Source: an uncultured Bacteroidota bacterium (lineage in GTDB: Bacteria > Bacteroidota > Bacteroidia > Bacteroidales > GCA-2748055). Taken from it: 64,000 bases of DNA. The notes beneath the pieces were generated by a model. The model was not told where the DNA came from. It did not search any database and was given only the letters and a program-made list of their open reading frames with translations. The stretch lies in assembly GCA_963783435.1 (NCBI GenBank), contig CAWANQ010000002.1, positions 329,044 to 393,043 of the forward strand, read 5' to 3'. Position numbers and translations under genes: made by a program. Every line of letters begins with the position of its first letter. Position 1 is the stretch's first letter. This document shows, piece after piece, positions 19,632-39,998 of the stretch.

Positions 19632-19648
19632 TGGGATAGAGTTTACAA

Positions 19649-19677
19649 TTGAGACTAGATACTTGTGAATGGTCACA
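19649..19677 (-). promoter_or_regulatory. Predicted ECF-sigma-type promoter, site a (TGTGACCATT-N11-AGTCTCAA)
   Basis: The reverse complement of 19649-19677 is TGTGACCATTCACAAGTATCTAGTCTCAA. The -10-like box ends 17 nt before the ATG at 19631. Confidence 0.65.
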
Positions 19678-22940: not shown

Positions 22941-22941
22941 T

Positions 22942-23763: not shown

Positions 23764-25243
23764 TTAAAAATTCTTCATCCACTTTTACGTCGATCCAACG
23801 CTTGTTCTCTCTCTTTACAGCTCCATCAGCATATTGAGAAAGGATATTAAACAAAGGTTTGCGAATATACTTAGGCAAATCCTCCAGATTACTCCTTTCT
23901 TTATCGAAGCGGAGTTTGGTAATTTCTGCATGTTCCCTGGCGATCTTTTCAGTGAGTCCATTTCGTTGAATCAGATTTTTCCTCAGCATCAGGTAATATA
24001 GATGTGAGGCGTCGCTTCCGATCTGTTTTACCGAATGTGATTCAAGTGCTTTTAATCCCTGCGCAATCTGGACCTCACTGTACCCACATCTTTCAGGATT
24101 CTCATCAAGGGCTTTTAGCATCCCGACGATCCTTCGACACTTCTCACACTTTCCACATGGATACATTCTTCCATTTACTTCATGGGCTGCATGACATGAA
24201 ACCTGGTGCTTTTGAAGATCGGGATAGCGCTTAATAAGAACTTTCATAATAAGCAGTTCCGACATACTCCGAAGAATGGAGAACTGATTGATTCTCCACC
24301 CCTTGTTCCTGTAATACCGGGTCATGGCGTTGTCGAAATATTTACTCTGATCGTAAAGGCCATTGTAGTGTGTGATGCCCTGCAAGTTGCTTGTTAGGGT
24401 GGTATCGTATTCATCCCCTATAAGGATATTTCCGATCCCCTTTTTACGGGCCACGGGAAGCACACCAAACAAAAATACCGCCACAGTCCAGAGCCTAATC
24501 GGATAGATATCAGATCTGATAGAGGCGAAATTTTCTTTGATAAAAGGCAATTGCTTAAGCATCCAGTTGAACAGTCGGTCGCTGTTGCACCATGGCTTCC
24601 TGGTATTTGGTTCGTTTTCATGGAAGAACCTGTGCGCATTGACGGCAGTAAACCAATGCCTTCCCGCTTCGTTGATGAAAATCGGGTAAGGCTCCCCGAA
24701 CTCTTTAACCAATCCATAAGTCAACAGGCTATCCTTTCCTCCACTGCTCAGAATGGCATATTTGGCCGGATCCGTTTCATCGATTTCACGGCCCAGTTTC
24801 ATTTGCTGGTATTGGGTGTTGAGAAAGTGGATCTGAGCCTGGGTGTAGCGGTCTTTTTTTTCCGGCTTCAACTCATCAAAAGGAGGCTTCAGAAATTCAT
24901 TTTTAACCAGGAGCTTGTTGGTTAAAATTTCCCGTGATGTGTTTTCCATCATATCTTTAATGAACTTCTGATCGCTCAGGTCAAAGAGTCCATCGAATTC
25001 AATTATTTCAAAAAAGAGCCCATAATTCAGGGCTGCCTGAGCCAGCATCATGGAGGCCAGATTTACATCGGCCGGCCGCAAACGATCAAAATACGGCTGC
25101 TCATAGGAGTAGATCAATTCAAAGGAGCTTACTTCACCGGCAAATCCTTCTACCTGATAAAGCGCTTTCACCTTTTTTGGCTCAATATGAATATTCTTTA
25201 TGGTAAGCTTCCTTAGTACTTTGAATGAATCCAGCGTAATCAT
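23726..25243 (-). CDS. PP-loop ATP pyrophosphatase (QueC/asparagine-synthetase-like adenylating enzyme) with unknown N-terminal domain
   Basis: 505-aa ORF. It has a PP-loop (AILSSGGKDS) and a QueC-like C-terminal Cys cluster (VSCHAAH...YPCGKCEKCRR). The first ~160 aa are unassigned. Confidence 0.6.
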   Translation of the reverse strand: MITLDSFKVLRKLTIKNIHIEPKKVKALYQVEGFAGEVSSFELIYSYEQPYFDRLRPADVNLASMMLAQAALNYGLFFEIIEFDGLFDLSDQKFIKDMMENTSREILTNKLLVKNEFLKPPFDELKPEKKDRYTQAQIHFLNTQYQQMKLGREIDETDPAKYAILSSGGKDSLLTYGLVKEFGEPYPIFINEAGRHWFTAVNAHRFFHENEPNTRKPWCNSDRLFNWMLKQLPFIKENFASIRSDIYPIRLWTVAVFLFGVLPVARKKGIGNILIGDEYDTTLTSNLQGITHYNGLYDQSKYFDNAMTRYYRNKGWRINQFSILRSMSELLIMKVLIKRYPDLQKHQVSCHAAHEVNGRMYPCGKCEKCRRIVGMLKALDENPERCGYSEVQIAQGLKALESHSVKQIGSDASHLYYLMLRKNLIQRNGLTEKIAREHAEITKLRFDKERSNLEDLPKYIRKPLFNILSQYADGAVKRENKRWIDVKVDEEFLNEAKYRWDERQS

Positions 25244-26310
25244 TTCAAATAAGATTTCAATACTCCCACGAGATCATCAGCTCCAAAAAGTAATACATCA
25301 AATGCTGGAAGTCCGGTCTCCAGGGTAATATCTTTACAAGCAGGTAATACCTCTTCTTCTGTCATCTCTTCATGATTCACCGTGATGGCAATGACCTTTT
25401 TACCGGAAATGGTTTCAATGGCATGAATCTGCTCTTTGAGCGAATGTAAGGGGTAGCCCGGGAATCCATCGTATTCTTTTCTTTTAGGAGCATGCTGAAG
25501 AACCACATAATCGGGCCTTCCGGCAGCCAGGATCTCAAACCCTCCGGGATAAGCAGGATTCATCAAACTACCCTGACCTTCGATAACAATGAGATCTGGC
25601 GATTCATTCTTCCATGCTTCATGTACGGCATGTTCGATCTCACCGGAGACAAAATCATTGATGCAGCTATCCATGATCATGGAATATTTTGCCCCCTGCA
25701 TCCAGGCAGTTTGTCCGGTGCCTGCTATTTCGGCTTTTAAGCCTGCCTTCCTGAATGCGTGAACAATAATCCAGGCGCTTGTTCTTTTACCGATGGCCGA
25801 ATCGGTTCCCAGGAGGGCAATTTTCAAACAGTCGACCTCCTCAATTTTGCCGGAAAAAAAATGCAGCTCATGGCGGTCAGGCGTTCTGCGAACATCCCTC
25901 ACCCTGCAGTTGAATCTTTTTGCAATGGCCATCAGCTTGGCATCCTTGTATAAAAAATCATGAAGACCACTGTCTACATTCATTCCCAGCTCCAGTGCTG
26001 CCATGATCGTCTTTTTGCCTTCAGCCGGAAGACGGCCCCCATCGGTCGCAAGACCAACAACCAGGGTAGTGGGCTTGTTTTCAGAGCCGAGCCTTTCCAG
26101 GGCTTCCTCCAGGTTCTTAAAAATGGGAATGTTTAACATTTTACTGTCCAGCACCATCCCTGCATCCCGACCTGCATATTTTTGATCGATCACCCCCACA
26201 ACTTCGTACCTTTCGGTAAACCTCACTAAGCCGTGAGCTGTTTTCCCATATGGCGTATTAAATGCCCCATCGGCATACACCAGAGCCTTGCCATCAATAG
26301 TTTGTTTCAT
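25240..26310 (-). CDS. DUF1611-family protein (DgcN-like; P-loop-containing)
   Basis: 356-aa ORF. It carries the family hallmarks: DGAFNTPYGKTAHGLVRF, GLATDGGRLP, LLGTDSAIGKRTS, TGQTAWMQG and IEGQGSLMNPAYPG. Confidence 0.72.
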   Translation of the reverse strand: MKQTIDGKALVYADGAFNTPYGKTAHGLVRFTERYEVVGVIDQKYAGRDAGMVLDSKMLNIPIFKNLEEALERLGSENKPTTLVVGLATDGGRLPAEGKKTIMAALELGMNVDSGLHDFLYKDAKLMAIAKRFNCRVRDVRRTPDRHELHFFSGKIEEVDCLKIALLGTDSAIGKRTSAWIIVHAFRKAGLKAEIAGTGQTAWMQGAKYSMIMDSCINDFVSGEIEHAVHEAWKNESPDLIVIEGQGSLMNPAYPGGFEILAAGRPDYVVLQHAPKRKEYDGFPGYPLHSLKEQIHAIETISGKKVIAITVNHEEMTEEEVLPACKDITLETGLPAFDVLLFGADDLVGVLKSYLK

Positions 26311-26334
26311 TCAATAAAAAATTGATACCTGTTT

Positions 26335-27396
26335 TTAATACTTTCCGGTCAAAATTGCGACATACCTGTCATTGATCATTTCACTCTTTTCGTGTACCTC
26401 AAGCAGAGCAATCAGGCCTGATGTGGATGCCGGCAATATCCTGTAGCCCTCTTTTTTATGCAAAAAAGTGCTCATCTCCTTCATCTTTCTATCACTGATG
26501 TGATGGGCCTCCCCACCTGATTCTCTCAGGGCATAAAGTGCCTCATTTCCATCAAAACTATGCCAGTTAATCAGCGGTTCATTAATGGCCGTCTCCCTGA
26601 CCAGTTTTGGATCAATATCTTCACAGGTATCGAGTCCGGATTTGAAAGAGGAGATAATCGGATTTTTATAGGCCGCCGAGCCCGCGATAAATATTGGAAT
26701 CCGTGAGGTCCTGCCACGCTTATACAAGCGCACAAAACCCCGGTAAATTCCTGCCAGAAGTGTGCCGTTGGAAACCGGTGCCGCAATGTATTTAGGTGCA
26801 TCGCGTAACTGGTCATAAATCTCCTCTGCAATTTCGGCATAAGCGGCAATTTGCAAATGCGTATTGGCACCGCCGGGATTGGCATCATACCAGCCGTTCT
26901 TTTTTGCCAGGATGCTCGATTCCTTCACTGCATCCTCATAGGTGCCAGGAAGCTTTATGATCTCTGCATCAAAGTTTAACATCTCACTGGTACGCTCGGT
27001 GTGGTAGGTTTCAGGAATAAAAATCTTGCATGAAATACCTGCCAGGTAGGCCGCATAGGCAATAGCCACACCATAATTTCCACAGGTTGCCAGTGAAATG
27101 ACCTTAAAGTTTCTTCGAAATGCATCCTGAACCTGGGCAAAAGCGATTCGGTCCTTTTGTGTACCTGAAGGGTTCTCTCCTTCATACTTAATATAGAGTT
27201 GCCGGATGTTCAGTTCCCTTTCAAGATTGCGTGCCCTTTTAAGTGAAGTATCACCCACCTCAAGGTTAATGATGTCCTCAAATGATTCAATCCGGTCAAT
27301 AATTGACAAGCTGTCATCCTGAACCATGTCGCTGAGAATCTTGACTTCCTTACTAATTTTAATTTCAGCTGATTTAACGCCATCTAAAAGGTTCAT
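26335..27396 (-). CDS. Fold-type II PLP enzyme (threonine-synthase / cysteine-synthase-like)
   Basis: 353-aa ORF. The PLP-lysine region is YEGENPSGTQKDRIAFAQV (compare NPTGSFKDR), followed by ATCGNYG and SNGTLLAG. Confidence 0.75.
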   Translation of the reverse strand: MNLLDGVKSAEIKISKEVKILSDMVQDDSLSIIDRIESFEDIINLEVGDTSLKRARNLERELNIRQLYIKYEGENPSGTQKDRIAFAQVQDAFRRNFKVISLATCGNYGVAIAYAAYLAGISCKIFIPETYHTERTSEMLNFDAEIIKLPGTYEDAVKESSILAKKNGWYDANPGGANTHLQIAAYAEIAEEIYDQLRDAPKYIAAPVSNGTLLAGIYRGFVRLYKRGRTSRIPIFIAGSAAYKNPIISSFKSGLDTCEDIDPKLVRETAINEPLINWHSFDGNEALYALRESGGEAHHISDRKMKEMSTFLHKKEGYRILPASTSGLIALLEVHEKSEMINDRYVAILTGKY

Positions 27397-27463: not shown

Positions 27464-28054
27464 TTAGGCTGCATCCTGCAGACTCAGTATCTGGCCCATT
27501 TTGGTCCGTGCCCTCAATAACCGCATTTTTACAGCACTGGCAGAAAGATCGAATTCATCCTGAAGGTCTTTTACCGAGTAATTCTGACGATACTTTAAAA
27601 CCAGAATTTGCCTCTCCTCTTCCGATAACATCATCAGGTATTCATCGAGGTTTGATTCCAATGCCTCCCATTTTAACCTTGCTTTATAATCTTCTTCATC
27701 CATCCACTCAGCCAGCATTTGCTGCGCTGCCACAATATCTTCATAATATTGTTTCCTTTTCTTTTTGGTCTGAGTGATGCAATAATTGGTAGCAATGGAA
27801 TACAACCAGGTTGAGAATTTCGAGTTTCCCCCAAAGGAGCTCACATTACAGATAGCCTTCACCAATATTTCCTGGGTCATATCAAACGCATCATCTCCAT
27901 TGCGCGAAAAAGAAAAGCACTTAGAATAGACTTTTGAATAATATCGATTGTATAAAATTCCAAAGCAGCTGTTATCTCCTTTCAGGAATTCATCAATAAG
28001 TTGTTCATCGCTTAATCCTTTATACCTCAAATTTTTCATCTTAGTAAATTTCAT
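27464..28054 (-). CDS. ECF-type RNA polymerase sigma-70 family factor (no adjacent anti-sigma)
   Basis: 196-aa ORF. Region 2 reads DDAFDMTQEILVKA...FSTWLYSIATNYC. Region 4 reads LSEEERQILVLKYRQNYSVKDLQDEFDLSASAVKMRLLRAR. Confidence 0.85.
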   Translation of the reverse strand: MKFTKMKNLRYKGLSDEQLIDEFLKGDNSCFGILYNRYYSKVYSKCFSFSRNGDDAFDMTQEILVKAICNVSSFGGNSKFSTWLYSIATNYCITQTKKKRKQYYEDIVAAQQMLAEWMDEEDYKARLKWEALESNLDEYLMMLSEEERQILVLKYRQNYSVKDLQDEFDLSASAVKMRLLRARTKMGQILSLQDAA

Positions 28055-28208: not shown

Positions 28209-28237
28209 TGTGACCTTTTTTGAATCGCGAGTCTCAA
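28209..28237 (+). promoter_or_regulatory. Predicted ECF-sigma-type promoter, site d (TGTGACCTTT-N11-AGTCTCAA)
   Basis: The sequence is TGTGACCTTTTTTGAATCGCGAGTCTCAA. It lies 163 nt upstream of the MscS ATG at 28401, leaving a long leader. Confidence 0.6.
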
Positions 28238-28400: not shown

Positions 28401-29240
28401 ATGAAATTAGGTGAATTTTTACAATCTACCCTGATCGAAACCAAGGACTTCGACGTCACTGTCTACGAAGTTTTCACTATTCTCCTTATTTTCCTTTTTA
28501 CAGCACTGCTCATGAGGGTGCTAAAAAGGGTGTTCCGTAACCGTGAAAAAAGAAAAGAATTTGATTCTGGAAGAAGTCACGCCATTCTGCAAATCCTCAA
28601 ATACGTGATATGGCTGGCGGTTATCCTCATATCCTTTGAAACTGTTGGCATCAAGCTAACTTTGCTACTGGCCGGATCAGCTGCACTTCTGGTTGGCCTT
28701 GGTTTGGGTTTGCAGCAAATATTCCAGGACATAATGTCGGGTGTAGCCATTCTTTTTGAGGGCAATTTAAAGGTGGGTGATATCGTGGAAATCCAGGATA
28801 ACCTCATCGGCCGGGTCATTGAAATAGGTCTGAGAACTTCAAAAATTGAAACCCGTGATAATATTATCATGGTTGTTCCAAATTCAAAATTTGTAACTGA
28901 CATTGTCATCAATTGGAGTCACAATGAGAAGAAGACCCGGTTTCATGTTGATGTGGGGGTGGCCTATGGCTCTGATGTTGAAAAAGTGTCAAAGGTGCTT
29001 CTTCAATGTGCTTTGGCTCAAGATAAAATATTACCCTCTCCAAATCCCTTTGTCCGCTTCAATGATTTCGGTGATTCCTCTCTTGATTTTCAACTATTTT
29101 TCTGGACCACCGAAACCTTCAGTGTTGAATTTATTAAGAGTGAAATTCGCTTTAATATCGATGCGGCATTCAGGAAAAACGGCATTCATATCCCCTTTCC
29201 CCAGCGGGACGTATATGTCAAATCGATGGATCCAAAATGA
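28401..29240 (+). CDS. Small-conductance mechanosensitive channel (MscS family)
   Basis: 279-aa ORF with 3 TM helices. The MscS pore/beta-domain signature reads LLAGSAALLVGLGLGLQQIFQDIMSGVAILFEGNLKVGDIVEI...GRVIEIGLRTSKIETRDN. Confidence 0.87.
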   Translation: MKLGEFLQSTLIETKDFDVTVYEVFTILLIFLFTALLMRVLKRVFRNREKRKEFDSGRSHAILQILKYVIWLAVILISFETVGIKLTLLLAGSAALLVGLGLGLQQIFQDIMSGVAILFEGNLKVGDIVEIQDNLIGRVIEIGLRTSKIETRDNIIMVVPNSKFVTDIVINWSHNEKKTRFHVDVGVAYGSDVEKVSKVLLQCALAQDKILPSPNPFVRFNDFGDSSLDFQLFFWTTETFSVEFIKSEIRFNIDAAFRKNGIHIPFPQRDVYVKSMDPK

Positions 29241-29242
29241 GC

Positions 29243-30274
29243 CTAGGTATTGTTTGCAATTCCCCGCAATAACCTGCCCAGAATATCTGCTCCCGTAATA
29301 ATTTGTTTATTCTGGCTCCAGAGCAAAATAATATCCCTGTCAATCACATCATCATCCTTCGACTCGGGTTGTAAATCAAGCAATTGTAGCAACTCACCAA
29401 GCTTCCTGGTGCTGTCTTTCACCACAATGGGCTCGTGACAATAATCTTCAGGGTCAGTCTCCGGGAGCTCAAAAATAGCAGCCCTGAGAAAGCCATCTGC
29501 ATCCATGACCCAGGAAGGATTGTTATCCTCATCTGTAAAAACAATCCATTTCTCACCTGATTTATTGATACTCAATAGAAAAGCATTGTCCTTCTCACTG
29601 GACCAATCAGGGAAAACAGGTTTCCCTTTTCGATGTTCCAGTGCGATGATGCTATCTGGATTCAACACCTCCCCTTCCTGATCCGCTGCAATATCATCGA
29701 TGGTAAGAAAATTGATTGCCCCCGTTCCCTCCACGTAGTCTATCTCATCGGCATCTTCGTCATGGATGTGTCGATGGATAAGATTTGTCAGGCTTTTTTC
29801 CTTGAAGTAATGGATGCTTTCCTGGCCTACCATCCAATTAAGCATCAAAGCCGAAGGTTTGGTAACAGGGTAAAGCAGATACTGATAGAAGATCAATACA
29901 GGAGATAGCCGTGAAGCCATTTTCAGGGCATGTCTTGAAAAATAAGCCTGGGGGATGATCTCTCCCAAAAAAGTGATGACAATCGTAGAGAATAAGAACG
30001 CCGATAAGCCAGCCATGACTGAATTCGAAATCAGCGTCAGCAACACATTGATCCCCACATTTCCCCAAAGAATGGTGGCTAAGAGAAAATTTGAATCTTC
30101 TCTCAGCTTTAACACCTTTATTGCTGCCTTGTTTTTGTTGCCGGCCTCAATCTCAAGCCGTAACCTGGGAACACTGAAAAAAGCCAGGTTCAATCCAGAA
30201 AACATGGCAGATTGGGTAATGCAAAAACCTATTCCTAACCAGAGAAGAAGGTTTGTGTCTGAAGTAGGTTCCAT
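29243..30274 (-). CDS. CNNM/DUF21-domain membrane protein (CorC/HlyC-like, divergent cytosolic part)
   Basis: 343-aa ORF. The DUF21 pattern is FSGLNLAFFSVPRLRLEIEA...NFLLATILWGNVGINV. The C-terminal half is only weakly CBS-like. Confidence 0.72.
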   Translation of the reverse strand: MEPTSDTNLLLWLGIGFCITQSAMFSGLNLAFFSVPRLRLEIEAGNKNKAAIKVLKLREDSNFLLATILWGNVGINVLLTLISNSVMAGLSAFLFSTIVITFLGEIIPQAYFSRHALKMASRLSPVLIFYQYLLYPVTKPSALMLNWMVGQESIHYFKEKSLTNLIHRHIHDEDADEIDYVEGTGAINFLTIDDIAADQEGEVLNPDSIIALEHRKGKPVFPDWSSEKDNAFLLSINKSGEKWIVFTDEDNNPSWVMDADGFLRAAIFELPETDPEDYCHEPIVVKDSTRKLGELLQLLDLQPESKDDDVIDRDIILLWSQNKQIITGADILGRLLRGIANNT

Positions 30275-30283
30275 CAGCAGGGC

Positions 30284-31330
30284 TTACAAGCAAGCCATCT
30301 CGTCGTTATCGAAATTTCTATTGTAATAACTCATATAATCGACCTTGTTCTCCAACGCATCCAGAACTGCATTGCTGAAATTCACCTTTTCGAAAATCTG
30401 TGCACTACCCAGGCCGCCGGGGCTAAATACATTGATTTCCATCAGTTTATCACCAACAATGTCCAGACCCACCAAAAACATGCCATCCTGAACGAGTTTT
30501 GGCCGAACAATCTCCGCCAGTTGCAGGTGCTGGTCTGTAATTACCGCCTGCCGCATTTTTCCACCAGCATGGATATTGCTCCTCATATCATCGCCCGTTC
30601 TGACTCTTCTGAATGCTGCATATTTCCCTTTATATCGCATGGGTCTTCCATTCATCATAAACAACCTGGTATCCCCCTCATGAGCAGCTGGTAAGTATTC
30701 CTGTGCAATGATATAACCGTCTCTTTGAAGTGCTTCAACGATCTGATTAAGGTTGGATTTATCCTCCGGTTTGACCAGAAAAACACCGGATCCTCCAGAC
30801 CCTTGAAGTGGCTTTAACACAATATGGCCTCCATGCTCACTGGCGAAGTGCTTGATATCGCTCAGGTTACGGGTGATCATGGTTCGGGGGCGAACCTGTT
30901 CCGGAAAGAGCTGAAAATAGCTTTTGTTAAGTGCTTTGGACAAGCCGTTGGGATCGTTTAAAACAATTACTCCATGCCGCATGGCAATCCGGCCAAAATT
31001 AATTCCTGCTGTTGCGGCCCAGGAACGGGATCCAATCTCATTGGCCGGATCACTCCTGAGCATCAGAATATCCAGGTCATCCACTGTGATGCGTTCCATC
31101 ACCCTGGTTTTGCTCTGAAGGGCCTTTAAATATGTTTCCGTGGTCTTATAAGTTTTCTTAACTACAGAGTAAGCTCTGGCCCTGATATTTTCATCCGGAT
31201 CATAGGCAAAATCACCCAGACCGATGACCCAGACTTCATGTCCCCGGTTCGTTGCCCACATACCCAAACGGGTTGTGGTATAACCGCTCTGTTCTGTCAT
31301 TACATCATTTACTACAAATCCTATTTTCAT
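30284..31330 (-). CDS. Glutathione-synthetase-like (GshB family) ATP-grasp ligase
   Basis: 348-aa ORF. It aligns by eye with prokaryotic GshB: LMLRSDPA, VLKPLQGSGGSGVF, EGDTRLFMMNG, SNIHAGG and FLVGLDIVGDKLMEINVFSPGG. Confidence 0.8.
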   Translation of the reverse strand: MKIGFVVNDVMTEQSGYTTTRLGMWATNRGHEVWVIGLGDFAYDPDENIRARAYSVVKKTYKTTETYLKALQSKTRVMERITVDDLDILMLRSDPANEIGSRSWAATAGINFGRIAMRHGVIVLNDPNGLSKALNKSYFQLFPEQVRPRTMITRNLSDIKHFASEHGGHIVLKPLQGSGGSGVFLVKPEDKSNLNQIVEALQRDGYIIAQEYLPAAHEGDTRLFMMNGRPMRYKGKYAAFRRVRTGDDMRSNIHAGGKMRQAVITDQHLQLAEIVRPKLVQDGMFLVGLDIVGDKLMEINVFSPGGLGSAQIFEKVNFSNAVLDALENKVDYMSYYNRNFDNDEMACL

Positions 31331-31341
31331 AATTCACTGTT

Positions 31342-33249
31342 TTATATAAGGTTAAATATAAGCTTTCCATTCCTTAATTCCTCAAGCCTTGAAAGGGACT
31401 GTGGCTCGTTCAGGTATTTTGGAGAGAGAAGAGCAGGCTTTAACACCTTGCGGTATTGAAGCTCATTGATCAGGGGGATGTTTTTTATGGATATCTTTCC
31501 CACAAGCAAGGGCTCCAGCTTACCTCCTTCTCTTAGATAATCCAAAAGTCTTATCAGGCCCCTGAGGTATACTGCATCTTTGGTAAATCCACCACTCCTG
31601 TATATTCGTGAAGTAATTACATAGGCCGATCTGCTTGCAAATCCATGCCTGTGGTTTAATTCTCTGAATGTTTCGATAAAGCTAGCCCCCTCAATCAGCA
31701 TCTGGGCAGCGATGACCCGGCCGGCCAGCAACCGAAATCTGGGGGGACTCAACCCGCCCACCAGATATTCAGAAAGTACAGCTAGCCCTTCCTGTAATTC
31801 ATCATATCCGGCTAGTCCGCTATATAGCTGCTGAAGCGGTTGATTCAGACCATTCACATAGGTCAGAACATGTGTGCCTACCTCATGCTGGATCAAAGCT
31901 TCTACCCTGGATTCAGGAACTTTTAGCCGTTTGCCAATCAAAAGATTTCCGGACGAAACCATTAAACCGGTAATGTCATCGCGGACAATTACCTTAGATG
32001 CTATTTCCGGATAAACTTCTGAAAATCTGGATATTTCCTGCCTGGCCCGCTCAGCAAAGTAGTTGGCATTAACCTGTTTACTACCTCGAATTTCTCGGCT
32101 GCGGGGAGATAGTGTATCCAGGATTCCTTTTGACAAGGTGATAAGCCTTTCATCCATTTCCCCAAAAAGCTGCATGCTTCCATAGAAAAAATTGCGCGTG
32201 TTTCGATCCCTTAGCATGGAAAATTTCTTCTCCAGCTCAACCAGTTTTTCATGGAATACAGCTGATAGTGTGGGGTCCTCAATCCGGTCAAATGGAATTT
32301 TATAGAGCTGCCGTTTAAGCACCGAGGGGTCAAAATTTATCGGTCTATAATTGAACACCGGCTCTCGCGTAAATCGACTCTCATTGAATTTACTCCAGGA
32401 CTGCTCGATATTGACAGGTGTAACCATCATCAGGAAGTCAAATTGATTGCTGATTTCAGCCAGCTTCCGATCCACCTCCCAAACTGCATTCACTACTGCG
32501 CGTCGTCCAAGGGATTGATAGTTTTCTGGATTGGCTTTGGTGCGTTTCTGCGAAAAAGAGTAAGCACCCTGTTTTAGAGCCACGGATACGCCTCTGTGTA
32601 TTCTTTTTAGAACAACTGGAAATACTTCCTTTGAATCCGGATCTCGATAAATGGGAGAAACCTCAAGTCCCACTGCATAACAATTGTTTTTCAATACGTC
32701 ACCCGGTGTCAGTAAGAAGGGCAATTTCTCCGGCCAGGGTCTCTTTGAATAGGTCGTTGAAACAATCCCTCGGTTTTTGGAAACCCTGATCCGTTTTAAT
32801 GCTTTTCCAATGGATTCGATGGTTTCATCCGGGATGCGATTATCGGGTACCAGGATTCGAAATTCAGGAGCTGTCCTGCTATTGTTTGCATCAATAATGT
32901 CAATGGGAGCTACCCGGGCCCAGATTTCAATGATAAGAAAAGCACCAAAGGTGGAGGACAGTGTTTCAACAACCGCTTTCACCAGTGAAGATACGCCCGA
33001 TTTATACCTGGGTGCAGCTGGGGCCACCAGATACGAGGCCTCTCCTTTGATGAGCTGCTCCGTTCCCTCATCTGCATGAGATTTTGAACGACGGTACACA
33101 AACAAAAAGGGTAGATTTCTGTCAATATGCAACCTGCCCTGGCCGGGAAGGGTTCTTCTTACCTGTTTATTCTCACCAAGTCGTTTGGTGATTTCGTAGA
33201 TAAAATCAGCAGTAATTTCATTTTGAATTGTTACCCTACTTTGACTCAT
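31342..33249 (-). CDS. DUF1704 / MATCAP-family metallopeptidase-like protein (QEGLA motif protein)
   Basis: 635-aa ORF. It has an HExxxH motif (IQHEVGTHVLTY) followed by YDELQEGLAVLSEY, the signature of the 'QEGLA motif' family. Confidence 0.78.
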   Translation of the reverse strand: MSQSRVTIQNEITADFIYEITKRLGENKQVRRTLPGQGRLHIDRNLPFLFVYRRSKSHADEGTEQLIKGEASYLVAPAAPRYKSGVSSLVKAVVETLSSTFGAFLIIEIWARVAPIDIIDANNSRTAPEFRILVPDNRIPDETIESIGKALKRIRVSKNRGIVSTTYSKRPWPEKLPFLLTPGDVLKNNCYAVGLEVSPIYRDPDSKEVFPVVLKRIHRGVSVALKQGAYSFSQKRTKANPENYQSLGRRAVVNAVWEVDRKLAEISNQFDFLMMVTPVNIEQSWSKFNESRFTREPVFNYRPINFDPSVLKRQLYKIPFDRIEDPTLSAVFHEKLVELEKKFSMLRDRNTRNFFYGSMQLFGEMDERLITLSKGILDTLSPRSREIRGSKQVNANYFAERARQEISRFSEVYPEIASKVIVRDDITGLMVSSGNLLIGKRLKVPESRVEALIQHEVGTHVLTYVNGLNQPLQQLYSGLAGYDELQEGLAVLSEYLVGGLSPPRFRLLAGRVIAAQMLIEGASFIETFRELNHRHGFASRSAYVITSRIYRSGGFTKDAVYLRGLIRLLDYLREGGKLEPLLVGKISIKNIPLINELQYRKVLKPALLSPKYLNEPQSLSRLEELRNGKLIFNLI

Positions 33250-34031
33250 TCATCTTAGAAATTTCATCCATTAGTCCTGGAACAGTATCATTCAGCATAT
33301 CTGATATGGCTCCAATAAATTCCCAATCTGGCATACCCGACCATTCATCCATGAAAATCTTTTTAAACTCAACTGAAATGCAACATGCAGACTCTTTAAA
33401 ATTATTGTGAATCCAGGTGGGAAAATAACCTCCCCGAAACTTAACATTTTCCCTCACATCCAATTTCCTCCCCAGGATGTCAGCACCTTTCAAATCATTT
33501 ATAAACCTATCTACCAAAGGTGCCCAATAATTTCGATCCATGGTCCCTGTACCGATATTTATTTCAGGATTCAATAGGGGATCATCGGGTGGGGCATCCG
33601 CTCCTTTGCGACGATGGTTATAACTATGAAAATCAAGAATCACGATTTTCCCGAAGCGTTCAATCAGGCTGGCTAAGGCCCTCATGAATTCTCTCATACG
33701 TTTCTGTATACTCTTTCAGTGCATTTTGAGTAACTGCTTCCGGGGGCGCTGCTTTCCATACATTCAGTCCCCATGCATCCGAGGGTGACAGGTAAATGGC
33801 CTTCTCGGGGGGGCGGTTGAGATCAAATTCAAATCGGGACATGCGCGCCACGATATGATTTTCAGACATTTTTGCCCAAACGCCGGTAAATGGGTCTTCC
33901 TCCCTCAGCCGATCTAGTCTCACTCAATGCGAACAGGCGAAGATGATCCATACTTAACTGGTGTCCATCGTGAATCGCCGTTGTAACGATTGGGGAATTA
34001 CTTTTTAACTCAATAACGCAAGTCTGGTTCA
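33236..34031 (-). pseudogene. N-formylglutamate-amidohydrolase-family (FGase) gene interrupted by 2-3 frame changes
   Basis: Three pieces make up the gene. The first is ATG at 34031, shifting within a few codons into ..PDCVIELKSNSPIVTTAIHDGHQLS..LFALSE (unlisted frame, open 33862-34089). The second is RLDRLREEDPFTGVW...EYTETYER (33660-33923). The third is EFMRALASLIERFGKIVILDFHSYNHRR... (33236-33697). Joined, they read as one FGase-like protein. Confidence 0.62.
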
Positions 34032-34036
34032 TATTT

Positions 34037-34065
34037 ATTTAGACTGCGTAAAACAGAATGGTCAC
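34037..34065 (-). promoter_or_regulatory. Predicted ECF-sigma-type promoter, site e (TGTGACCATT-N11-AGTCTAAA)
   Basis: The reverse complement of 34037-34065 is TGTGACCATTCTGTTTTACGCAGTCTAAA. The ATG at 34031 follows after 5 nt. Confidence 0.65.
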
Positions 34066-34149: not shown

Positions 34150-34178
34150 TGTGACCAATGGCTCAAAGTGGGTCTGAA
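34150..34178 (+). promoter_or_regulatory. Predicted ECF-sigma-type promoter, site f (TGTGACCAAT-N11-GGTCTGAA)
   Basis: The sequence is TGTGACCAATGGCTCAAAGTGGGTCTGAA. It ends 23 nt before the ATG at 34202 and is divergent from site e. Confidence 0.6.
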
Positions 34179-34201: not shown

Positions 34202-35728
34202 ATGAAAGAAATTGAAAATATAGAATTGGCGTTTTTAAGCCTGAATGATTATCAGGAACTTAAAGAAGCCATGATTGAATCATACAGTAGTATGCCTAAT
34301 TCATATTGGAAAGAGCATCACATTAAAGCCTTGATAGAAAGATTTCCAGAGGGCCAGGTGGTTATCAAGGTTAACGGGCAGATTGCAGGTTGCGCACTAT
34401 CCATCATTGTAGACTATAATAAGTATGACGAGGATCATACCTACAAAGAAATAACCGGGAACTATACTTTTGACACACACAGTGCCGATGGCGATATGCT
34501 CTACGGGATTGATGTTTTCATTAAACCAGAATTCAGGGGACTAAGACTAGGGAGAAGACTCTATGATTATAGAAAAGAACTATGTGAAAGGATAAACTTA
34601 AAAGGCGTAGCATTTGGAGGCAGAATACCCAATTACCACAAACATTCCAATGAGCTGACCCCCAAAGAATACATCGCAGCTGTCAGGCGGAAAGAGATCA
34701 CAGACCCTGTACTTAATTTTCAAATATCCAATGATTTTCACCCTTCAAAAATTCTCAAGAATTATCTTGACGGAGATGCGGCCTCCAATGAATATGCAGT
34801 ACTCCTGGAATGGGACAATATCTACTATGAAAAGAAGAGTAAAAAGGCCAGCATTACAAAAAAACTGATCCGCCTCGGTCTCATCCAGTGGCAGATGCGC
34901 CCATACAAGAGCCTGGATGAGTTGTTGCAGCAAGCAGAGTTTTTTGTGGATGCTGTCTCGGGTTACCGTTCGGATTTCGCGCTTTTTCCCGAGTTTTTTA
35001 ATGCCCCTTTGATGGCCGAAAATAACCACTTGACTGAACCAGAAGCCATCAGGGAGCTTGCCGGATTTACCCGCCAAATCGTCGATAAATTCTCAGAATT
35101 GGCCATCTCGTACAACATTAATATTATTTCCGGAAGTATGCCTGAACTTCAAAATGATAACCTTTATAATGTGGGCTACTTATGCAAAAGAGACGGGACA
35201 ACTGAAAGGTATGAGAAATTGCATGTTACCCCGGATGAAAAAAAAGTATGGGGCATGCAGAAAGGAAAGCAGCTTCAGGTTTTTGATACAGATTGTGGGA
35301 AGATTGGAATACTCATATGTTATGATGTGGAATTTCCTGAATTGAGCCGCTTACTGGCCGACGAGGGCATGGACGTGTTATTTGTTCCCTTTCTGACCGA
35401 CACTCAAAACGGGTACTCCCGGATTAGAAATTGTGCCCAGGCGCGGGCCATTGAAAATGAATGCTATGTAGCTATTGCCGGATGTGTGGGGAACCTTCCC
35501 AAAGTTCACAATATGGATATTCAATATGCTCAATCTATGGTCTTTACTCCATGTGATTTCGCATTTCCTGCCAATGGCATAAAAGCCGAAGCTACTCCCA
35601 ATACCGAAATGATTCTGATCGCAGATTGCGACGTTAGTTTATTAAGAGAACTCAACCAATTTGGAAGCGTAAGGAATTTGAAGGACAGACGCCAGGATAT
35701 TTATCAATTGCAGAAAACTCCAAAATGA
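34202..35728 (+). CDS. Fusion protein: N-terminal GNAT acetyltransferase + C-terminal carbon-nitrogen hydrolase (nitrilase superfamily)
   Basis: 508-aa ORF. The GNAT core reads GIDVFIKPEFRGLRLGRRLY. The CN-hydrolase E-K-C triad context is ALFPEFF, YEKLHVTP and GILICYDVEFPE. Confidence 0.85.
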   Translation: MKEIENIELAFLSLNDYQELKEAMIESYSSMPNSYWKEHHIKALIERFPEGQVVIKVNGQIAGCALSIIVDYNKYDEDHTYKEITGNYTFDTHSADGDMLYGIDVFIKPEFRGLRLGRRLYDYRKELCERINLKGVAFGGRIPNYHKHSNELTPKEYIAAVRRKEITDPVLNFQISNDFHPSKILKNYLDGDAASNEYAVLLEWDNIYYEKKSKKASITKKLIRLGLIQWQMRPYKSLDELLQQAEFFVDAVSGYRSDFALFPEFFNAPLMAENNHLTEPEAIRELAGFTRQIVDKFSELAISYNINIISGSMPELQNDNLYNVGYLCKRDGTTERYEKLHVTPDEKKVWGMQKGKQLQVFDTDCGKIGILICYDVEFPELSRLLADEGMDVLFVPFLTDTQNGYSRIRNCAQARAIENECYVAIAGCVGNLPKVHNMDIQYAQSMVFTPCDFAFPANGIKAEATPNTEMILIADCDVSLLRELNQFGSVRNLKDRRQDIYQLQKTPK

Positions 35729-37131
35729 AAAACACATACTTCGATTTAATAGAGCAAACCTATTACTTCCCGCAGGAAGGGTTTGATCTGAGAGATGACA
35801 ACCTGACTTTCCACGGGGTATCATTGAAACACCTGATCGAGAAGCACGGAACTCCCTTCAGATTTATCTATTTGCCAAAAATTGGAGACCAGATTAAAAA
35901 GGCAAGGAATCTGTTCAACAGGGCCATTAAAAACAATGCATATAAGGGAAAATACCATTTTTGCTATTGCACCAAATGTAATCACTTCTTTCATGTGATT
36001 AACGAAGCACTGAAACACAAGGTAGATCTTGAAACCTCCTCTTCTTTCGATATTGACCTGATTTTAAATCTGCACAAGAGGAACAAGATTGACAAAGGCA
36101 GGCTGATCGTGCACAATGGCTTTAAGACGGAAGAATATCTGAAGAAAATTATACAACTCCAGGAAGAGGGATTCACAAATTCAGTCATCATCCTGGACAG
36201 CAAAAATGAACTTGAGCGTCTGCTCCGGATTAAAACCAGTAATCCGCTAAAAGTGGGACTCAGAATGGCCATCAATGAAGAGGCTCAATCTGCCTATTAC
36301 ACTTCACGTCTGGGCATCCCTCCGGATGATATCATCGCTTTATTTAAAAAACACATCAGGGATAATAGCAGGGTGGAGCTAAAGATGCTTCATTTTTTCG
36401 TGGATTCGGGCATCAAAGACACGCTCTACTTCTGGGGAGAGTTCCAGAAAGCGCTTAAACTCTATGTGGCACTCAAAAAGGAGAGTGAGAATCTGGAAGC
36501 CTTTAATATTGGAGGAGGTTTTCCCATCCGCAATCACCTGGGATTTGAGTACAACTATGAATACATGATCAATGAGATCATCAAAAATATCAAAGAGGCC
36601 TGCACCAAAGAGAATGTGAAAGAGCCCGATATTTTTACAGAGTTCGGCCGCTTTACAGTGGGTGAGGCAGGCGCCATCATCTTTGAAGTCCTTGAACAAA
36701 AGAAGCAAAATGACACGGAAACCTGGTACATCATCAACAACAGCCTGATGAATACCATCCCCGATGCCTGGTCCATCCATGAGAAATTTATCCTGCTCCC
36801 GGTCAACAAATGGGACCATGAGTACGGACGTGCCAACATCGGGGGCATCAGTTGTGATCATTCGGACTATTACAACTCGGAGGACCTCAACCAGGAGATT
36901 TTGCTTCCTACATATGACAGCAAGGAAAAAGAACCCCTCTACCTCGGATTCTTTCATACCGGCGCCTACCAGGATTCAATCAGCGGTTACGGAGGTATTA
37001 AACACTGCCTTATCCCCTCCCCCAAGCATGTAATCATTGACCGGGATTCCAAAGGGAATATCATTGACCATGTATACCGCGAAGAACAGTCGGTCAAAGA
37101 AATGTTCAATATACTTGGATACAATGAATGA
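35725..37131 (+). CDS. Type III PLP (Orn/DAP/Arg) decarboxylase, probable arginine decarboxylase
   Basis: 468-aa ORF. It has GTPFRFIYLPKI, the PLP-lysine context FCYCTKCNHF, and NIGGGFP. Arginine specificity is inferred from the adjacent agmatinase. It overlaps the upstream gene by 4 nt. Confidence 0.72.
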   Translation: MKNTYFDLIEQTYYFPQEGFDLRDDNLTFHGVSLKHLIEKHGTPFRFIYLPKIGDQIKKARNLFNRAIKNNAYKGKYHFCYCTKCNHFFHVINEALKHKVDLETSSSFDIDLILNLHKRNKIDKGRLIVHNGFKTEEYLKKIIQLQEEGFTNSVIILDSKNELERLLRIKTSNPLKVGLRMAINEEAQSAYYTSRLGIPPDDIIALFKKHIRDNSRVELKMLHFFVDSGIKDTLYFWGEFQKALKLYVALKKESENLEAFNIGGGFPIRNHLGFEYNYEYMINEIIKNIKEACTKENVKEPDIFTEFGRFTVGEAGAIIFEVLEQKKQNDTETWYIINNSLMNTIPDAWSIHEKFILLPVNKWDHEYGRANIGGISCDHSDYYNSEDLNQEILLPTYDSKEKEPLYLGFFHTGAYQDSISGYGGIKHCLIPSPKHVIIDRDSKGNIIDHVYREEQSVKEMFNILGYNE

Positions 37132-37978
37132 CGTGAAAACTTTCGGAGGTATCGGGAAGGAGTATGCCGGCCATGATCAATCGCAAATACTCCTGCAATC
37201 CATCCCCTATGATGGTACAAGTACATGGGGAAAGGGTGCAGACAGGGGATTTGAGGCCTTCCTTGAAGCCGCCGAAAATATGGAACTGTACGATATCGAA
37301 ACCGAATCGGAGGTCTACAGGCATGGCATCCACATACTGCCCGGGATCACAGAGAAAACTTCCCCGGAAGCGGTATACTCGGTGGTTCTGGAACAAACCC
37401 AAAAGCTCCTTTCCAGGAATAAGTTTCTCACCTTCTTCGGCGGGGAACACTCCATCAGCATTGGCATCATTGAGGCCTACAGGAAAGCCTTTCCTGACCT
37501 GACGGTTCTTCAACTGGATGCCCATGCCGATTTAAGGAAACAATATATGAACTCACCCTACAATCACGCCTGTGCCATGCACAGGGCCAGTAAATCGACC
37601 AACCTGGTCCAGGTCGGTATCAGAAGCATGGATGTTTGCGAGAAAGAGTACCTGGATCCTCAGAAGTGCTTCTTTGCCCACAATATGCATTCGAACAGAT
37701 CCTGGGAGGAAGCATCCATTGACTTGATGAGTGAGCATGTATACCTCTCCATAGACCTGGATGTGCTGGATCCCTCTGTGATGCCTTCCACAGGCACACC
37801 AGAACCGGGAGGAATGGACTGGTATATGACCCTGGAATACCTTAAGAAAGTGTTCCTGGCCAAAAACATTGTTGGATTTGACATCGTAGAATTTGCGCCC
37901 ATAAAGGATCTGAAGGCTCCGGATTTCCTGGTGGCCAAACTATACTACAAACTTCTGTCCTATAAATTTCACCTTTGA
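37124..37978 (+). CDS. speB: Agmatinase (arginase/ureohydrolase family)
   Basis: The start is reassigned to MNDVKTFGGI at 37124. The Mn-ligand motifs are GGEHSIS, LQLDAHADLR and LSIDLDVLDPS...TGTPEPGG. Confidence 0.85.
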   Translation: MNDVKTFGGIGKEYAGHDQSQILLQSIPYDGTSTWGKGADRGFEAFLEAAENMELYDIETESEVYRHGIHILPGITEKTSPEAVYSVVLEQTQKLLSRNKFLTFFGGEHSISIGIIEAYRKAFPDLTVLQLDAHADLRKQYMNSPYNHACAMHRASKSTNLVQVGIRSMDVCEKEYLDPQKCFFAHNMHSNRSWEEASIDLMSEHVYLSIDLDVLDPSVMPSTGTPEPGGMDWYMTLEYLKKVFLAKNIVGFDIVEFAPIKDLKAPDFLVAKLYYKLLSYKFHL

Positions 37979-38970
37979 GCCTACCTGAAATGAAAGAACA
38001 ACAAGGCAATATCAGCAAGTTTATGCTTGAACATTTCAAGCATTTCAATTCAGCTGCCATGATCGATGCAGCCATAGGGTACGATAAACAGCTTGTACAG
38101 GGAAACAAAATGATGATCACCCTTGCCGGGGCCATGAGCACCGCTGAACTCGGGAAATCCCTGGCGGAGATGATCCGGCAGGATAAGGTTCACATCATCT
38201 CATGCACCGGGGCCAACCTGGAGGAAGATCTGATGAACCTGGTGGCCCATACTCACTACAAAAGAGTTCCGGAATACCGCGATTTAAGCCCTGAACAGGA
38301 GCGGGAGTTGCTGAACCGGGGTCTGAACCGTGTAACCGATACCTGTATCCCTGAAGAGGAAGCCTTCAGGCGCCTTCAGGAACATATTTTTGATATCTGG
38401 AAGGAAGCAGAAAGCAGAGGGGAACGGTATTTTCCTCATGAATACATGTACAATATGCTTAATTCGGGCGTGCTGGAACAATACTATGAGATCGATCCAC
38501 AGGACAGCTGGATGCTGGCCGCCGCTGAGAAAAGCCTCCCCATCGTGGTACCCGGATGGGAAGACTCCACCATGGGTAATATCTTTGCTTCCTATTGCAT
38601 CAAAGGGGAACTGCAAGCCCAAACTGTAAAATCGGGTATCGAATACATGATGTGGCTGGCCGACTGGTATACCAGGAATACCCGGGAGAAGGGTATCGGA
38701 TTCTTCCAGATAGGAGGAGGCATAGCAGGAGATTTCCCCATATGTGTGGTTCCCATGCTCTACCAGGACCTGGAGCGGACCAGCACGCCTTTCTGGAGCT
38801 ACTTCTGCCAGATATCCGATTCAACCACCAGCTACGGCTCCTATTCCGGTGCCGTCCCCAATGAAAAGATCACCTGGGGGAAACTGGATACCGACACCCC
38901 TAAGTTCATTGTCGAATCGGATGCCACGATTGTTGCCCCCCTGATTTTCGCTTACCTACTGGACTGGTAG
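37975..38970 (+). CDS. Deoxyhypusine-synthase-like protein (bacterial homospermidine-synthase-type)
   Basis: 331-aa ORF. The start is TTG at 37975 or ATG at 37990. The DHS-family pattern is ITLAGAMSTAELG...ISCTGANLEEDL...VPGWEDSTMGN...FQIGGGIAGDFP. Confidence 0.85.
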   Translation: MSLPEMKEQQGNISKFMLEHFKHFNSAAMIDAAIGYDKQLVQGNKMMITLAGAMSTAELGKSLAEMIRQDKVHIISCTGANLEEDLMNLVAHTHYKRVPEYRDLSPEQERELLNRGLNRVTDTCIPEEEAFRRLQEHIFDIWKEAESRGERYFPHEYMYNMLNSGVLEQYYEIDPQDSWMLAAAEKSLPIVVPGWEDSTMGNIFASYCIKGELQAQTVKSGIEYMMWLADWYTRNTREKGIGFFQIGGGIAGDFPICVVPMLYQDLERTSTPFWSYFCQISDSTTSYGSYSGAVPNEKITWGKLDTDTPKFIVESDATIVAPLIFAYLLDW

Positions 38971-39030: not shown

Positions 39031-39885
39031 ATGGAGAATTTTTTTGACAACCCTACGGTGAAGTATTCCTTTATCATAGTCGGGACATTGCTTGTTGCAT
39101 TAGTAATCTCTAAAATCCTTAGAATCATTATAAGCAGGTTTATCAAACTTTCTTCCAATAAGCTTAAAGTCGACCATACCCAGTTTAATTTCCTGAAGAA
39201 TGCAGTTACTTTCTTTGTGTTTCTAGGTGCGATAATCTTCATATTCTATACCATTCCAAAGTTAAAAACCCTCAGTTTAACCCTATTTGCCGGGGCAGGA
39301 ATCCTGACGGCCGTTGCCCTTTTTGCCTCTCAACAGGCATTTTCCAATATTGTGAGCGGGGTTTTCATTGTCATTTTTAAACCTTTCAGGGTCAATGACC
39401 TTGTGGATGTGGGAAATTTGCCCAAAGGCAGGGTTGAGGATATTACACTTCGACATACCGTTATCCGAAGTTTTGAAAACCGCAGGATGATTATTCCTAA
39501 TTCGGTGATAAGTTCTGAGATTCTGGTTAACTCGAGCATTGTGGATGAAACAATCTGCAATTTTATTGATATGGGAATAAGTTACGACTCGGATATCGAT
39601 AAGGCCATGCAGATTATGCACGATGAGGGAGTTGCGCACCCAAATTTTATTGATCACAGGTCAGAAGAGGAAATTAAAGAGGGCGTTTTACCAGTCACCA
39701 CCCGGGTGATGGGCTTTGGTGATTCGTCGGTCAACCTGCGGGCTTTTATTTGGTCAAAGGACCACAGCTCAGGATATGTAATGAAAACGGATCTCCATAA
39801 ATCCATCAAAGAACAGTTTGATAAGCAGGGTATAGAGATTCCCTTCCCGTATCGCACTATTGTTTATAAGGACAAAGAGAGATAG
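39031..39885 (+). CDS. Mechanosensitive channel, MscS family
   Basis: 284-aa ORF. The signature reads AGILTAVALFASQQAFSNIVSGVFIVIFKPFRVNDLVDV...GRVEDITLRHTVIRSFENRR. Confidence 0.87.
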   Translation: MENFFDNPTVKYSFIIVGTLLVALVISKILRIIISRFIKLSSNKLKVDHTQFNFLKNAVTFFVFLGAIIFIFYTIPKLKTLSLTLFAGAGILTAVALFASQQAFSNIVSGVFIVIFKPFRVNDLVDVGNLPKGRVEDITLRHTVIRSFENRRMIIPNSVISSEILVNSSIVDETICNFIDMGISYDSDIDKAMQIMHDEGVAHPNFIDHRSEEEIKEGVLPVTTRVMGFGDSSVNLRAFIWSKDHSSGYVMKTDLHKSIKEQFDKQGIEIPFPYRTIVYKDKER

Positions 39886-39969: not shown

Positions 39970-39998
39970 TGTGACCTTTTCTCTGGAAATAGTCTTAA
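39970..39998 (+). promoter_or_regulatory. Predicted ECF-sigma-type promoter, site c (TGTGACCTTT-N11-AGTCTTAA)
   Basis: The sequence is TGTGACCTTTTCTCTGGAAATAGTCTTAA. The ATG at 40005 follows after 6 nt, and the next in-frame ATG is at 40014. Confidence 0.62.

Follow-up and report, generated by a model that had tools for sequence, protein, structure and literature searches.

An operon on the minus strand of a Bacteroidota contig brings together an ATP-grasp ligase, a homologue of the human peptidase MATCAP, an amidohydrolase-like enzyme of the FGase family and a CNNM-type membrane protein. It lies in a 64,000-nucleotide (nt) stretch from an uncultured Bacteroidales bacterium (NCBI GenBank assembly GCA_963783435.1, contig CAWANQ010000002.1, positions 329,044 to 393,043), which we call the window. 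Pfam searches confirmed the families of all four genes, which are co-directional on the minus strand, follow a single promoter-like motif and lie at the coordinates given in the original prediction (Table 1). That prediction also spaced the genes by 9-13 nt. Such spacers separate the ligase gene from the CNNM gene (9 nt) and the MATCAP-like gene from the ligase gene (11 nt), but the FGase-like gene shares 14 nt with the start of the MATCAP-like gene. Ordinary sigma-70 promoters and intrinsic terminators within the operon were not informatively above shuffled expectation. Three of the genes, in the order FGase-like, MATCAP-like and ligase, form a unit that recurs across many bacterial lineages, and we refer to them here as the trio.

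We surveyed 80 loci, taking one genome per species and assigning lineages from record titles. The loci span about 15 named bacterial lineages: Bacteroidota, Chloroflexota, Ignavibacteria, Calditrichota, Planctomycetota, Poribacteria, Acidobacteriota, Verrucomicrobiota/Kiritimatiellia, Gemmatimonadota, Myxococcota, Thermodesulfobacteriota, Dadabacteria, Chlorobiota, Actinomycetota and Pseudomonadota. A ligase gene lies directly downstream of the MATCAP-like gene at 72 of 76 evaluable loci, an FGase-like gene lies directly upstream of it at 67 of 74, and the full trio is present in this order at 63 of 71. The same annotated trio is carried on megaplasmids of Sinorhizobium meliloti (pSymB), Shinella, Aminobacter and Pararhizobium. 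In Photobacterium, a ligase of the same type precedes a long protein of the MATCAP-like family, which databases list under the name QEGLA, and the FGase-like gene is absent. Solitary QEGLA genes with neither ligase nor FGase-like partner occur in Pseudoalteromonas, as a 426-residue short form (locus L083, 6977-8257), and in Vibrio, as a 663-residue long form (locus L089, 6110-8101). At other loci the enzymes have multiplied. Clusters with two to three divergent ligase paralogues from different clades (L053, L061, L080, L075, L049, L057, L069 and L020) are mostly from Planctomycetota and Verrucomicrobia, with L057 from Gemmatimonadota and L069 from Chlorobiota, and some of them also hold two to three long MATCAP-like paralogues, for example in the order FGase-MATCAP-ligase-ligase-MATCAP-ligase.

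A test of co-occurrence across phyla had been suggested for three or four of the genes; conserved linkage extends to the trio and not to the CNNM gene. The CNNM protein has a DUF21/CNNM transmembrane domain (124.8 bits) and falls far below the cut-offs of GldE, PaeA and other equivalogs. A model search detected no CBS or CorC_HlyC domain in its C-terminal 170 or so residues, which is unusual for the family. Among the fetched loci, the gene sits inside the operon only in the two closest relatives of the window (L001 and the P0003 contig); of the other fetched loci, six have a CNNM/CorC gene in the neighbourhood but outside the operon. These neighbourhood counts rule out a place for CNNM in the conserved unit and mark it, on gene order, as a lineage-specific fourth gene that was added to the operon.

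The 635-residue protein carries the HEVGTH and QEGLA motifs at the residues listed in Table 1. DUF1704 is the MATCAP family, as the original prediction stated: Pfam names PF08014 "MATCAP", and the protein matches this model over residues 287-621 with 305.6 bits (cut-off 27). On TIGR02421, the NCBIfam hypothetical equivalog for QEGLA proteins, it scores 336.1 bits, marginally below the cut-off of 338.65; the Photobacterium long form reaches 459.9 bits. A profile built from 15 homologues matched human MATCAP in the PDB (7z5g, 7z5h and 7z6s; E-value (E) 1.4e-8), aligning HEVGTH on HEIGTH and QEGLA on EEGLA of the human enzyme. H455, E456, H460 and E487 are invariant in our 15-sequence alignment (A1), and the EEG glutamate of MATCAP enzymes is a putative third metal ligand (PMC10499314). 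Invariant basic residues (R504, R506, R511, R548, R551 and K557) are also present in this domain. Structural comparison with MATCAP, suggested earlier as a check, agrees with the profile match. In a Foldseek search, the top PDB hit of an AlphaFold2 model (predicted local distance difference test, pLDDT, 80.7) was human apo-MATCAP (7z5g_C; E 7.7e-9, template-modelling (TM) score on the target 0.66, 385 columns), and M32 carboxypeptidases came next. As judged by sequence profile, predicted fold and the aligned HExxxH...E site, the protein is a member of the MATCAP Pfam family, and family membership predicts carboxypeptidase action on C-terminal residues.

The N-terminal domain (residues 1-258) has no match in Pfam. 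Its conserved motifs are GRLHIDRxLPFLxVYRR, DxGTE and GEASYL. Foldseek places it near PNP-like (nucleoside phosphorylase) folds, the FGase structure 2q7s and 3b2y/2qvp, with E of about 3-5e-3, and hhalign matches it to the neighbouring FGase-like family with a probability of 82% (E 1e-5, 167 columns). In that alignment the strand FLIIEIW falls on VVFDLHSY of the FGase-like family, so that the metal-binding His would have been lost. The domain is thus probably a degenerate copy of the FGase-like fold. It is carried by 650 clusters at 50% identity; the best 150 of these are mostly about 600-660 residues long, and the shorter ones resemble truncated open reading frames (ORFs). The Pseudoalteromonas short forms (about 426 residues) have neither this domain nor the partner genes.

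The ligase has both GshB domains in Pfam and retains the GshB N-domain and flexible loop. Its closest solved relative is E. coli GshB (1gsa, E 1.3e-37), with the Mg/ATP catalytic residues and the flexible-loop residues aligned; matches to RimK structures have E of about 2e-7. It nevertheless misses both GshB equivalogs (TIGR01380, 197.3 bits against a cut-off of 299.05; NF003573, 210.8 against 272) and also the RimK family (TIGR00768, 80 against 143.4), whereas it exceeds the cut-off of NF009110, the PRK12458 "glutathione synthetase" subfamily (474.8 against 408). The QEGLA-adjacent ligases of Sinorhizobium (501 bits) and Photobacterium (487.8 bits) are likewise of PRK12458 type, as in Bacteroidota. 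The S. meliloti pSymB paralogue also falls below both GshB cut-offs. The Photobacterium enzyme passes NF003573 (292.4 against 272) and not TIGR01380 (244.4), and its top score is still on the PRK12458 model. No gamma-Glu-Cys ligase (gshA) family match was found among the window ORFs that were scanned (not all were), and none is in the operon. With a dN/dS of 0.026, the ligase is the most constrained gene of the operon. The original prediction had left room for an ordinary glutathione synthetase; the family scores instead point to a member of the PRK12458 subfamily that is neither GshB nor RimK and is probably no glutathione synthetase.

An intact orthologue of the FGase-like protein scores 64.6 bits on PF05013 (cut-off 28.9), and the two larger fragments of the disrupted window gene score 29.5 and 20.8 bits. 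Sequence searches against the PDB, with the single sequence or a profile, gave no match, and the fold search alone did. An AlphaFold2 model computed with database relatives (pLDDT 92) has 2q7s as its top Foldseek hit (E 4.5e-13, TM 0.73), together with 2odf (E to 1e-9). Weaker matches are to bacterial CCP-like M14 enzymes and to CCP5, with E of about 1e-4 to 6e-4. Residues H21, E44, D46, D70, N72, R73, D133, H135 and E221 are invariant in the family. Identity with HutG was considered and rejected: the protein scores 21.6 bits on TIGR02017 against a cut-off of 278.75, and no hut genes lie nearby in the window. By these matches it is a Pfam FGase with a conserved site, distinct from HutG, in a highly conserved subfamily of its own.

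Stress regulation of the operon, part of the original prediction, is plausible on the predicted promoters of both Bacteroidota and rhizobia. The motif upstream of the FGase-like gene ("motif site e") is one of six promoter-like elements of the extracytoplasmic function (ECF) type in the window, with the form TGTGACC-N15/16-GTCT(A/C/G/T)A, and several window operons share it. A stricter form, GTGACC-N12-20-GTCTAA, occurs twice in the window against an expectation of 0.05. The six copies probably constitute the regulon of the ECF sigma factor encoded in the window. Seven related Bacteroidota loci (L001, L002, L003, L005, L006, L064 and L088) have the motif at the same place, shortly before the start codon of the FGase-like gene. 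The trio of Sinorhizobium meliloti and Shinella has upstream of it GGAAC-N16-CGTT (L082 5070-5094, L084 6070-6094, L085 3417-3441), which we take to be the form of EcfG/RpoE2 general-stress promoters, and that of Aminobacter and Pararhizobium has GGAAC-N17-CATT variants. In S. meliloti, a 70-residue ORF (L084 6151-6363) separates the promoter from the FGase-like gene. A literature search for a connection between formylglutamate enzymes and RpoE2 or the general stress response found nothing relevant.

The surroundings of the operon read, by gene family, as an island of osmotic and ionic stress functions: four MscS-type genes, two MgtE-type genes, CNNM, PPK2, two Usp genes and a polyamine operon lie within about 27 kb. 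In the window, the polyamine operon and the trio are transcribed away from each other; in locus L001 (378-5146), which is 85% identical, the polyamine operon is co-directional with the trio and directly upstream of it, and this difference in orientation implies an inversion. The FGase-like gene has its own promoter motif in both arrangements. Across species, MscS-type genes lie within 8 kb of the trio at 26 of 81 loci by neighbour clustering, and any ion transporter (MscS, cation-chloride cotransporter, CorA, CNNM/CorC or CitMHS-TrkA_C) is near it at 34 of 81. Expression data point to the same physiology. In RNA-seq of Photobacterium damselae at 1% versus 3% NaCl, the adjacent "GshB" gene (up 38-fold) and QEGLA gene (27-fold) ranked with the most strongly induced genes; RimK was up 52-fold in the same low-salt set, and polyamine genes were also induced (PMC10308900).

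Directly behind the ECF sigma gene, a further minus-strand operon (21876-27396) encodes a PALP enzyme of the PRK06381 type (416 bits), a DUF1611/DgcN-like protein, a creatininase/MftE-like amidohydrolase and an enolase-superfamily enzyme resembling Ala-Glu epimerases and DgcA. A 505-residue ORF in this operon (23726-25243) has no Pfam or NCBIfam match. The enzyme families of this operon suggest dipeptide or N-acyl-glutamate chemistry.

Table 1. Features of the operon and its surroundings, in window coordinates.
Feature	Position	Strand	Remarks
CNNM/DUF21 membrane protein	29243-30274	-	343 aa (amino acids); PF01595, E 4e-36
GshB-like ATP-grasp ligase, PRK12458-type	30284-31330	-	348 aa; PF02955, E 8.5e-51
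MATCAP/DUF1704 protein	31342-33249	-	635 aa; PF08014, E 6e-91
MATCAP (PF08014/TIGR02421-like) gluzincin carboxypeptidase domain, predicted	31342-32472	-	residues 260-635 of 635
QEGLA motif	31780-31794	-	residues 486-490; E487 predicted third metal ligand
HEVGTH, predicted zinc-binding/catalytic motif	31870-31887	-	residues 455-460 (H455-E456-x3-H460)
N-terminal domain, alpha/beta	32476-33249	-	residues 1-258; probably degenerate FGase-like (phosphorylase/peptidase-like) fold
FGase-like (PF05013) amidohydrolase gene, frame-disrupted	33236-34031	-	three frames; PF05013 matches on both larger fragments
Motif site e, ECF-type, TGTGACC-N16-GTCTAA	34039-34066	-	-10-like element ends about 8 nt before the FGase-like ATG
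Motif copy before Usp gene	19650-19676	-	
Motif copy before MscS gene	28209-28236	+	
Motif copy before polyamine operon	34150-34177	+	
Motif copy before MscS-like/MgtE operon	39970-39997	+	
Motif copy before second Usp gene	45980-46007	-	
ECF sigma gene	27464-28054		
MscS-type genes	28401-29240, 39031-39885, 40005-40832, 43069-44163		
Two MgtE-like genes	40835-42989		
PPK2	44179-44919		
Usp genes	18726-19676 and 45101-45961		
Polyamine operon	34202-38970	+	GNAT-CN_hydrolase (nitrilase) fusion, arginine decarboxylase, agmatinase, deoxyhypusine/homospermidine-synthase-like

What might such a module do? Our tentative preference, held with a little less than even confidence, is that the trio is a ligase/hydrolase module acting on a small glutamate-type peptide during osmotic or ionic stress, by analogy with RimK/RimB. 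Three enzymes would be transcribed together from an ECF-sigma stress promoter: the PRK12458-type ligase, a two-domain MATCAP-type zinc carboxypeptidase and an FGase-type amidohydrolase. At the expense of ATP, the ligase would attach an amino acid (most probably glutamate or some other small residue) to a small acidic acceptor at its free carboxylate; the acceptor would be an N-acyl-glutamate or a di- or oligopeptide of glutamyl type. The MATCAP-like enzyme would trim C-terminal residues off the ligase product one at a time, and the FGase-like enzyme would cut the last N-acyl-amino-acid bond, which is out of reach of a carboxypeptidase. In this way the trio could buffer free against condensed glutamate-type solutes, rapidly and reversibly, as osmolarity or ionic strength shifts, in concert with the regulon's polyamines, MscS channels and Mg2+ transporters. 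A regulon that includes polyamine synthesis and mechanosensitive channels would be a fitting place for such a reversible condensation.

We favour a small glutamate-type substrate because the ligase is GshB-like and not RimK-like, and because FGase enzymes act on small N-acyl amino acids. The absence of a nearby substrate argues in the same direction: among about 10,500 ORFs, from about 90 fetched loci and positions 20-45 kb of the window, there was no ORF with an acidic C-terminal tail and no substrate-like gene. So does the multiplication of ligases in some clusters. The scheme has precedents. MATCAP/TMCP enzymes strip C-terminal Tyr and Glu and shorten polyglutamate chains on the acidic tails of tubulin (PMC10499314), and the RimK/RimB and RloABC systems pair ATP-grasp ligases with polyglutamate-cleaving peptidases and, as systems, are needed under hypo-osmotic stress (PMC12239564). 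For the bacterial MATCAP homologues themselves, the literature yielded no published biochemical function or substrate, in line with the original prediction, which knew of no demonstrated substrate.

Several considerations weigh against a small-peptide buffer of this kind. The chemistry of every member is read from family membership alone. The MATCAP enzymes known so far are all peptidases of protein tails, and this speaks for a protein as the substrate. Expressing a ligase with two hydrolases from the same operon would lead to a futile cycle, barring post-translational control or action on different bonds. The trio is also not obligatory, since the Photobacterium pair lacks the FGase-like gene and some Vibrio and Pseudoalteromonas homologues are solitary. 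Although MscS and other ion-transporter genes are far more frequent near the trio than a few percent, that figure is a rough expectation and not a matched control. Finally, the osmotic direction is unclear: the Photobacterium genes are induced at low salt, and the EcfG general stress response is broader than osmotic stress.

Alternatively, the trio could modify proteins reversibly at their C-termini, a possibility that we regard as real but doubtful. The ligase would add one or more residues (Glu or Tyr-like) to the tail of a specific protein encoded elsewhere, for example a ribosomal or stress protein, and the MATCAP-like enzyme would remove them, as a bacterial counterpart of RimK/RimB and of the TTL/TTLL-MATCAP cycle. 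The characterised enzymes of the MATCAP family all act on protein tails, from which they remove Tyr and Glu (PMC10499314). RpsF is glutamylated by ATP-grasp enzymes of the RimK type, and RimB cuts the new residues back (PMC12239564). The co-induction of RimK with the Photobacterium pair at low salt is consistent with such a role, and the many invariant Arg and Lys residues of the MATCAP-like domain would suit an acidic substrate. However, the ligase is much nearer to GshB, which has a small-molecule acceptor, than to RimK (197-211 versus 80 bits), and it is hard to see what an FGase-type enzyme would do on a protein. Nor was a candidate substrate gene or acidic-tailed ORF present at the roughly 90 loci, and the multi-ligase expansions rather resemble stepwise peptide assembly.

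We consider it improbable that the trio is a linear route for salvage or catabolism of an exogenous or cell-wall-derived peptide, in which the hydrolases would free an amino acid for re-use by the ligase, possibly together with the neighbouring PALP/DUF1611/creatininase/epimerase operon. Sequential action on different bonds would explain the co-transcription of hydrolases and ligase more easily. A PALP and DUF1611 (DgcN-like) pair lies within 8 kb of the trio at 8 loci in three phyla (Bacteroidota, Ignavibacteria and Holophagae), joined in the window by the Ala-Glu-epimerase-like enzyme and the MftE-like peptidase. Against this, no uptake transporter or binding protein is conserved beside the trio, its stress-sigma regulation and ion-channel context are unlike those of nutrient catabolism, and ATP-grasp ligases are generally rare in catabolic routes.

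It is very improbable that the ligase is an ordinary or alternative glutathione synthetase, or a synthetase of another gamma-glutamyl thiol tripeptide, with the hydrolases serving thiol-peptide turnover and the PA3697/flavohemoglobin link reflecting redox or nitrosative-stress metabolism: the name of the NCBI family, the GshB structural match, the origin of the QEGLA name in a Pseudomonas aeruginosa fhp promoter screen and general-stress promoters that would also suit an antioxidant speak for it, but the equivalog scores in the window and in S. meliloti, the PRK12458 preference of even the Photobacterium ligase that passes NF003573, the lack of gshA in the operon and among the scanned window ORFs, the presence of the trio in lineages not generally known for glutathione (Bacteroidota, Ignavibacteria, Chloroflexota and Planctomycetota) and the glutathione deficiency of S. 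meliloti gshB mutants (PMC8226930) despite the pSymB paralogue, which we presume to be present in the same strain background, all speak against it.

The enzyme classes of the trio (an ATP-grasp ligase, a MATCAP gluzincin and a carboxypeptidase-fold hydrolase) parallel TTL/TTLL, MATCAP/TMCP and CCP of the tubulin-tail cycle. MATCAP was recognised only recently as a tubulin detyrosinase and deglutamylase. Its two eukaryotic forms, MATCAP1/TMCP1 (KIAA0895L) and MATCAP2/TMCP2 (KIAA0895), share with the bacterial protein PF08014, the predicted fold (7z5g) and the HExxxH...E(G) site. In both systems a MATCAP-family peptidase is paired with an ATP-grasp amino-acid ligase, and the predicted fold of the FGase-like enzyme has a weak likeness to that of the CCP deglutamylases (CCP5, Foldseek E 6e-4). 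Unlike the tubulin cycle, the trio has no tubulin, carries an additional 258-residue FGase-like N-domain, uses a GshB-type and not a TTL-type ligase, and is encoded in a single operon under a stress sigma factor; its substrate is more likely a small molecule. The likeness is best seen as a resemblance of enzyme classes, which does not imply common descent of the system beyond the peptidase domain.

Other systems offer further parallels. RimK/RimB(/RimA) and RloABC of Pseudomonas are likewise operons with an ATP-grasp ligase and a peptidase that undoes its product, linked to hypo-osmotic or environmental stress. RimB-type peptidases are aspartic and retropepsin-like, whereas the trio peptidase is predicted to be a zinc gluzincin of the MATCAP family; the trio ligase is below the RimK cut-off, an FGase-type third enzyme is present, and an RpsF-type substrate is known for RimK only. 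In the bifunctional glutathionylspermidine and trypanothione synthetase-amidases, too, the bond made by an ATP-grasp synthetase is hydrolysed by its partner, and these enzymes have a link to polyamines, whose biosynthetic operon neighbours the trio in the window. The solved structure nearest to the ligase is that of GshB, and the ligase has both GshB domains. The trio differs from these in having no gshA in the operon and no CHAP amidase, in its hydrolases from unrelated families and in missing the GshB equivalogs. With the N-formylglutamate amidohydrolase HutG, the FGase-like protein shares PF05013 and the FGase fold, but it is below the equivalog cut-off, is placed upstream of the MATCAP-like gene and has no hut genes nearby. 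The database family QEGLA/TIGR02421 has the same C-terminal domain and motifs, and relatives carry its name. That name, "flavohemoglobin expression-modulating", stems from PA3697, which was picked up in a genetic screen on the P. aeruginosa fhp promoter, and it describes no biochemical function. Compared with known ligase-peptidase pairs, the trio appears distinctive in its predicted fusion of a MATCAP-type gluzincin to a degenerate FGase-like domain, alongside an FGase-like enzyme whose active site is intact.

The gene families and their names are already in databases. The conserved trio, its stress and osmotic context, the homology of the N-domain and the mis-annotation of the ligase appear to be undescribed, in a comparison that left the 2009 amidoligase survey to one side. 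It is conceivable, if rather unlikely, that the trio is an unrecognised and widespread system for reversible C-terminal (poly)glutamylation or amino-acid tailing, of a protein or of free oligo-glutamate, under osmotic or ionic stress, and perhaps also the prokaryotic source of the eukaryotic MATCAP arm. If the trio does buffer glutamate-type solutes or tail proteins, it would be a new element of bacterial osmotic and ionic stress physiology and would provide evolutionary context for one arm of the tubulin code. Its conserved ligase/FGase setting, stress promoters and ion and polyamine neighbours make its function directly testable in tractable organisms such as S. meliloti and P. damselae. Annotations can be corrected: the ligase is probably mislabelled as a glutathione synthetase, HutG is the wrong name for the hydrolase, and "flavohemoglobin expression-modulating" describes no biochemical activity.

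The frame disruption of the FGase-like gene, already recognised in the original prediction, can be traced by alignment to two independent single-base (+1) insertions, near 33917 (GAGA[C]TAGAT) and near 33668 (AGCC[A/C]...CTG). Both insertions are missing from the intact 264-residue genes of two relatives, L001 and L088; intact orthologues of this length are found in L001, in L088/P0121 and on the P0003 contig. Deleting the two inserted bases restores a 264-residue ORF with every family-invariant residue, and its dN/dS against L001 (0.155) is near that of the neighbouring MATCAP-like gene (0.117). Because the corrected frame is full, keeps its invariant residues and has evolved much like its neighbour, the damage must be very recent or an artefact; the window gene was either broken very recently or mis-assembled. 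Programmed frameshifting is ruled out, as both changes are +1 insertions that do not compensate each other and are missing from two relatives. Elsewhere in the window, a Reg_prop/Y_Y_Y/HisKA/HATPase_c sensor kinase (57141-60922, plus strand) is split into three overlapping ORFs by two apparent frameshifts. This similar split makes an assembly indel error a serious possibility for the FGase-like gene as well, and the frameshifts of the two genes together point to assembly indel errors or to several recent pseudogenes.

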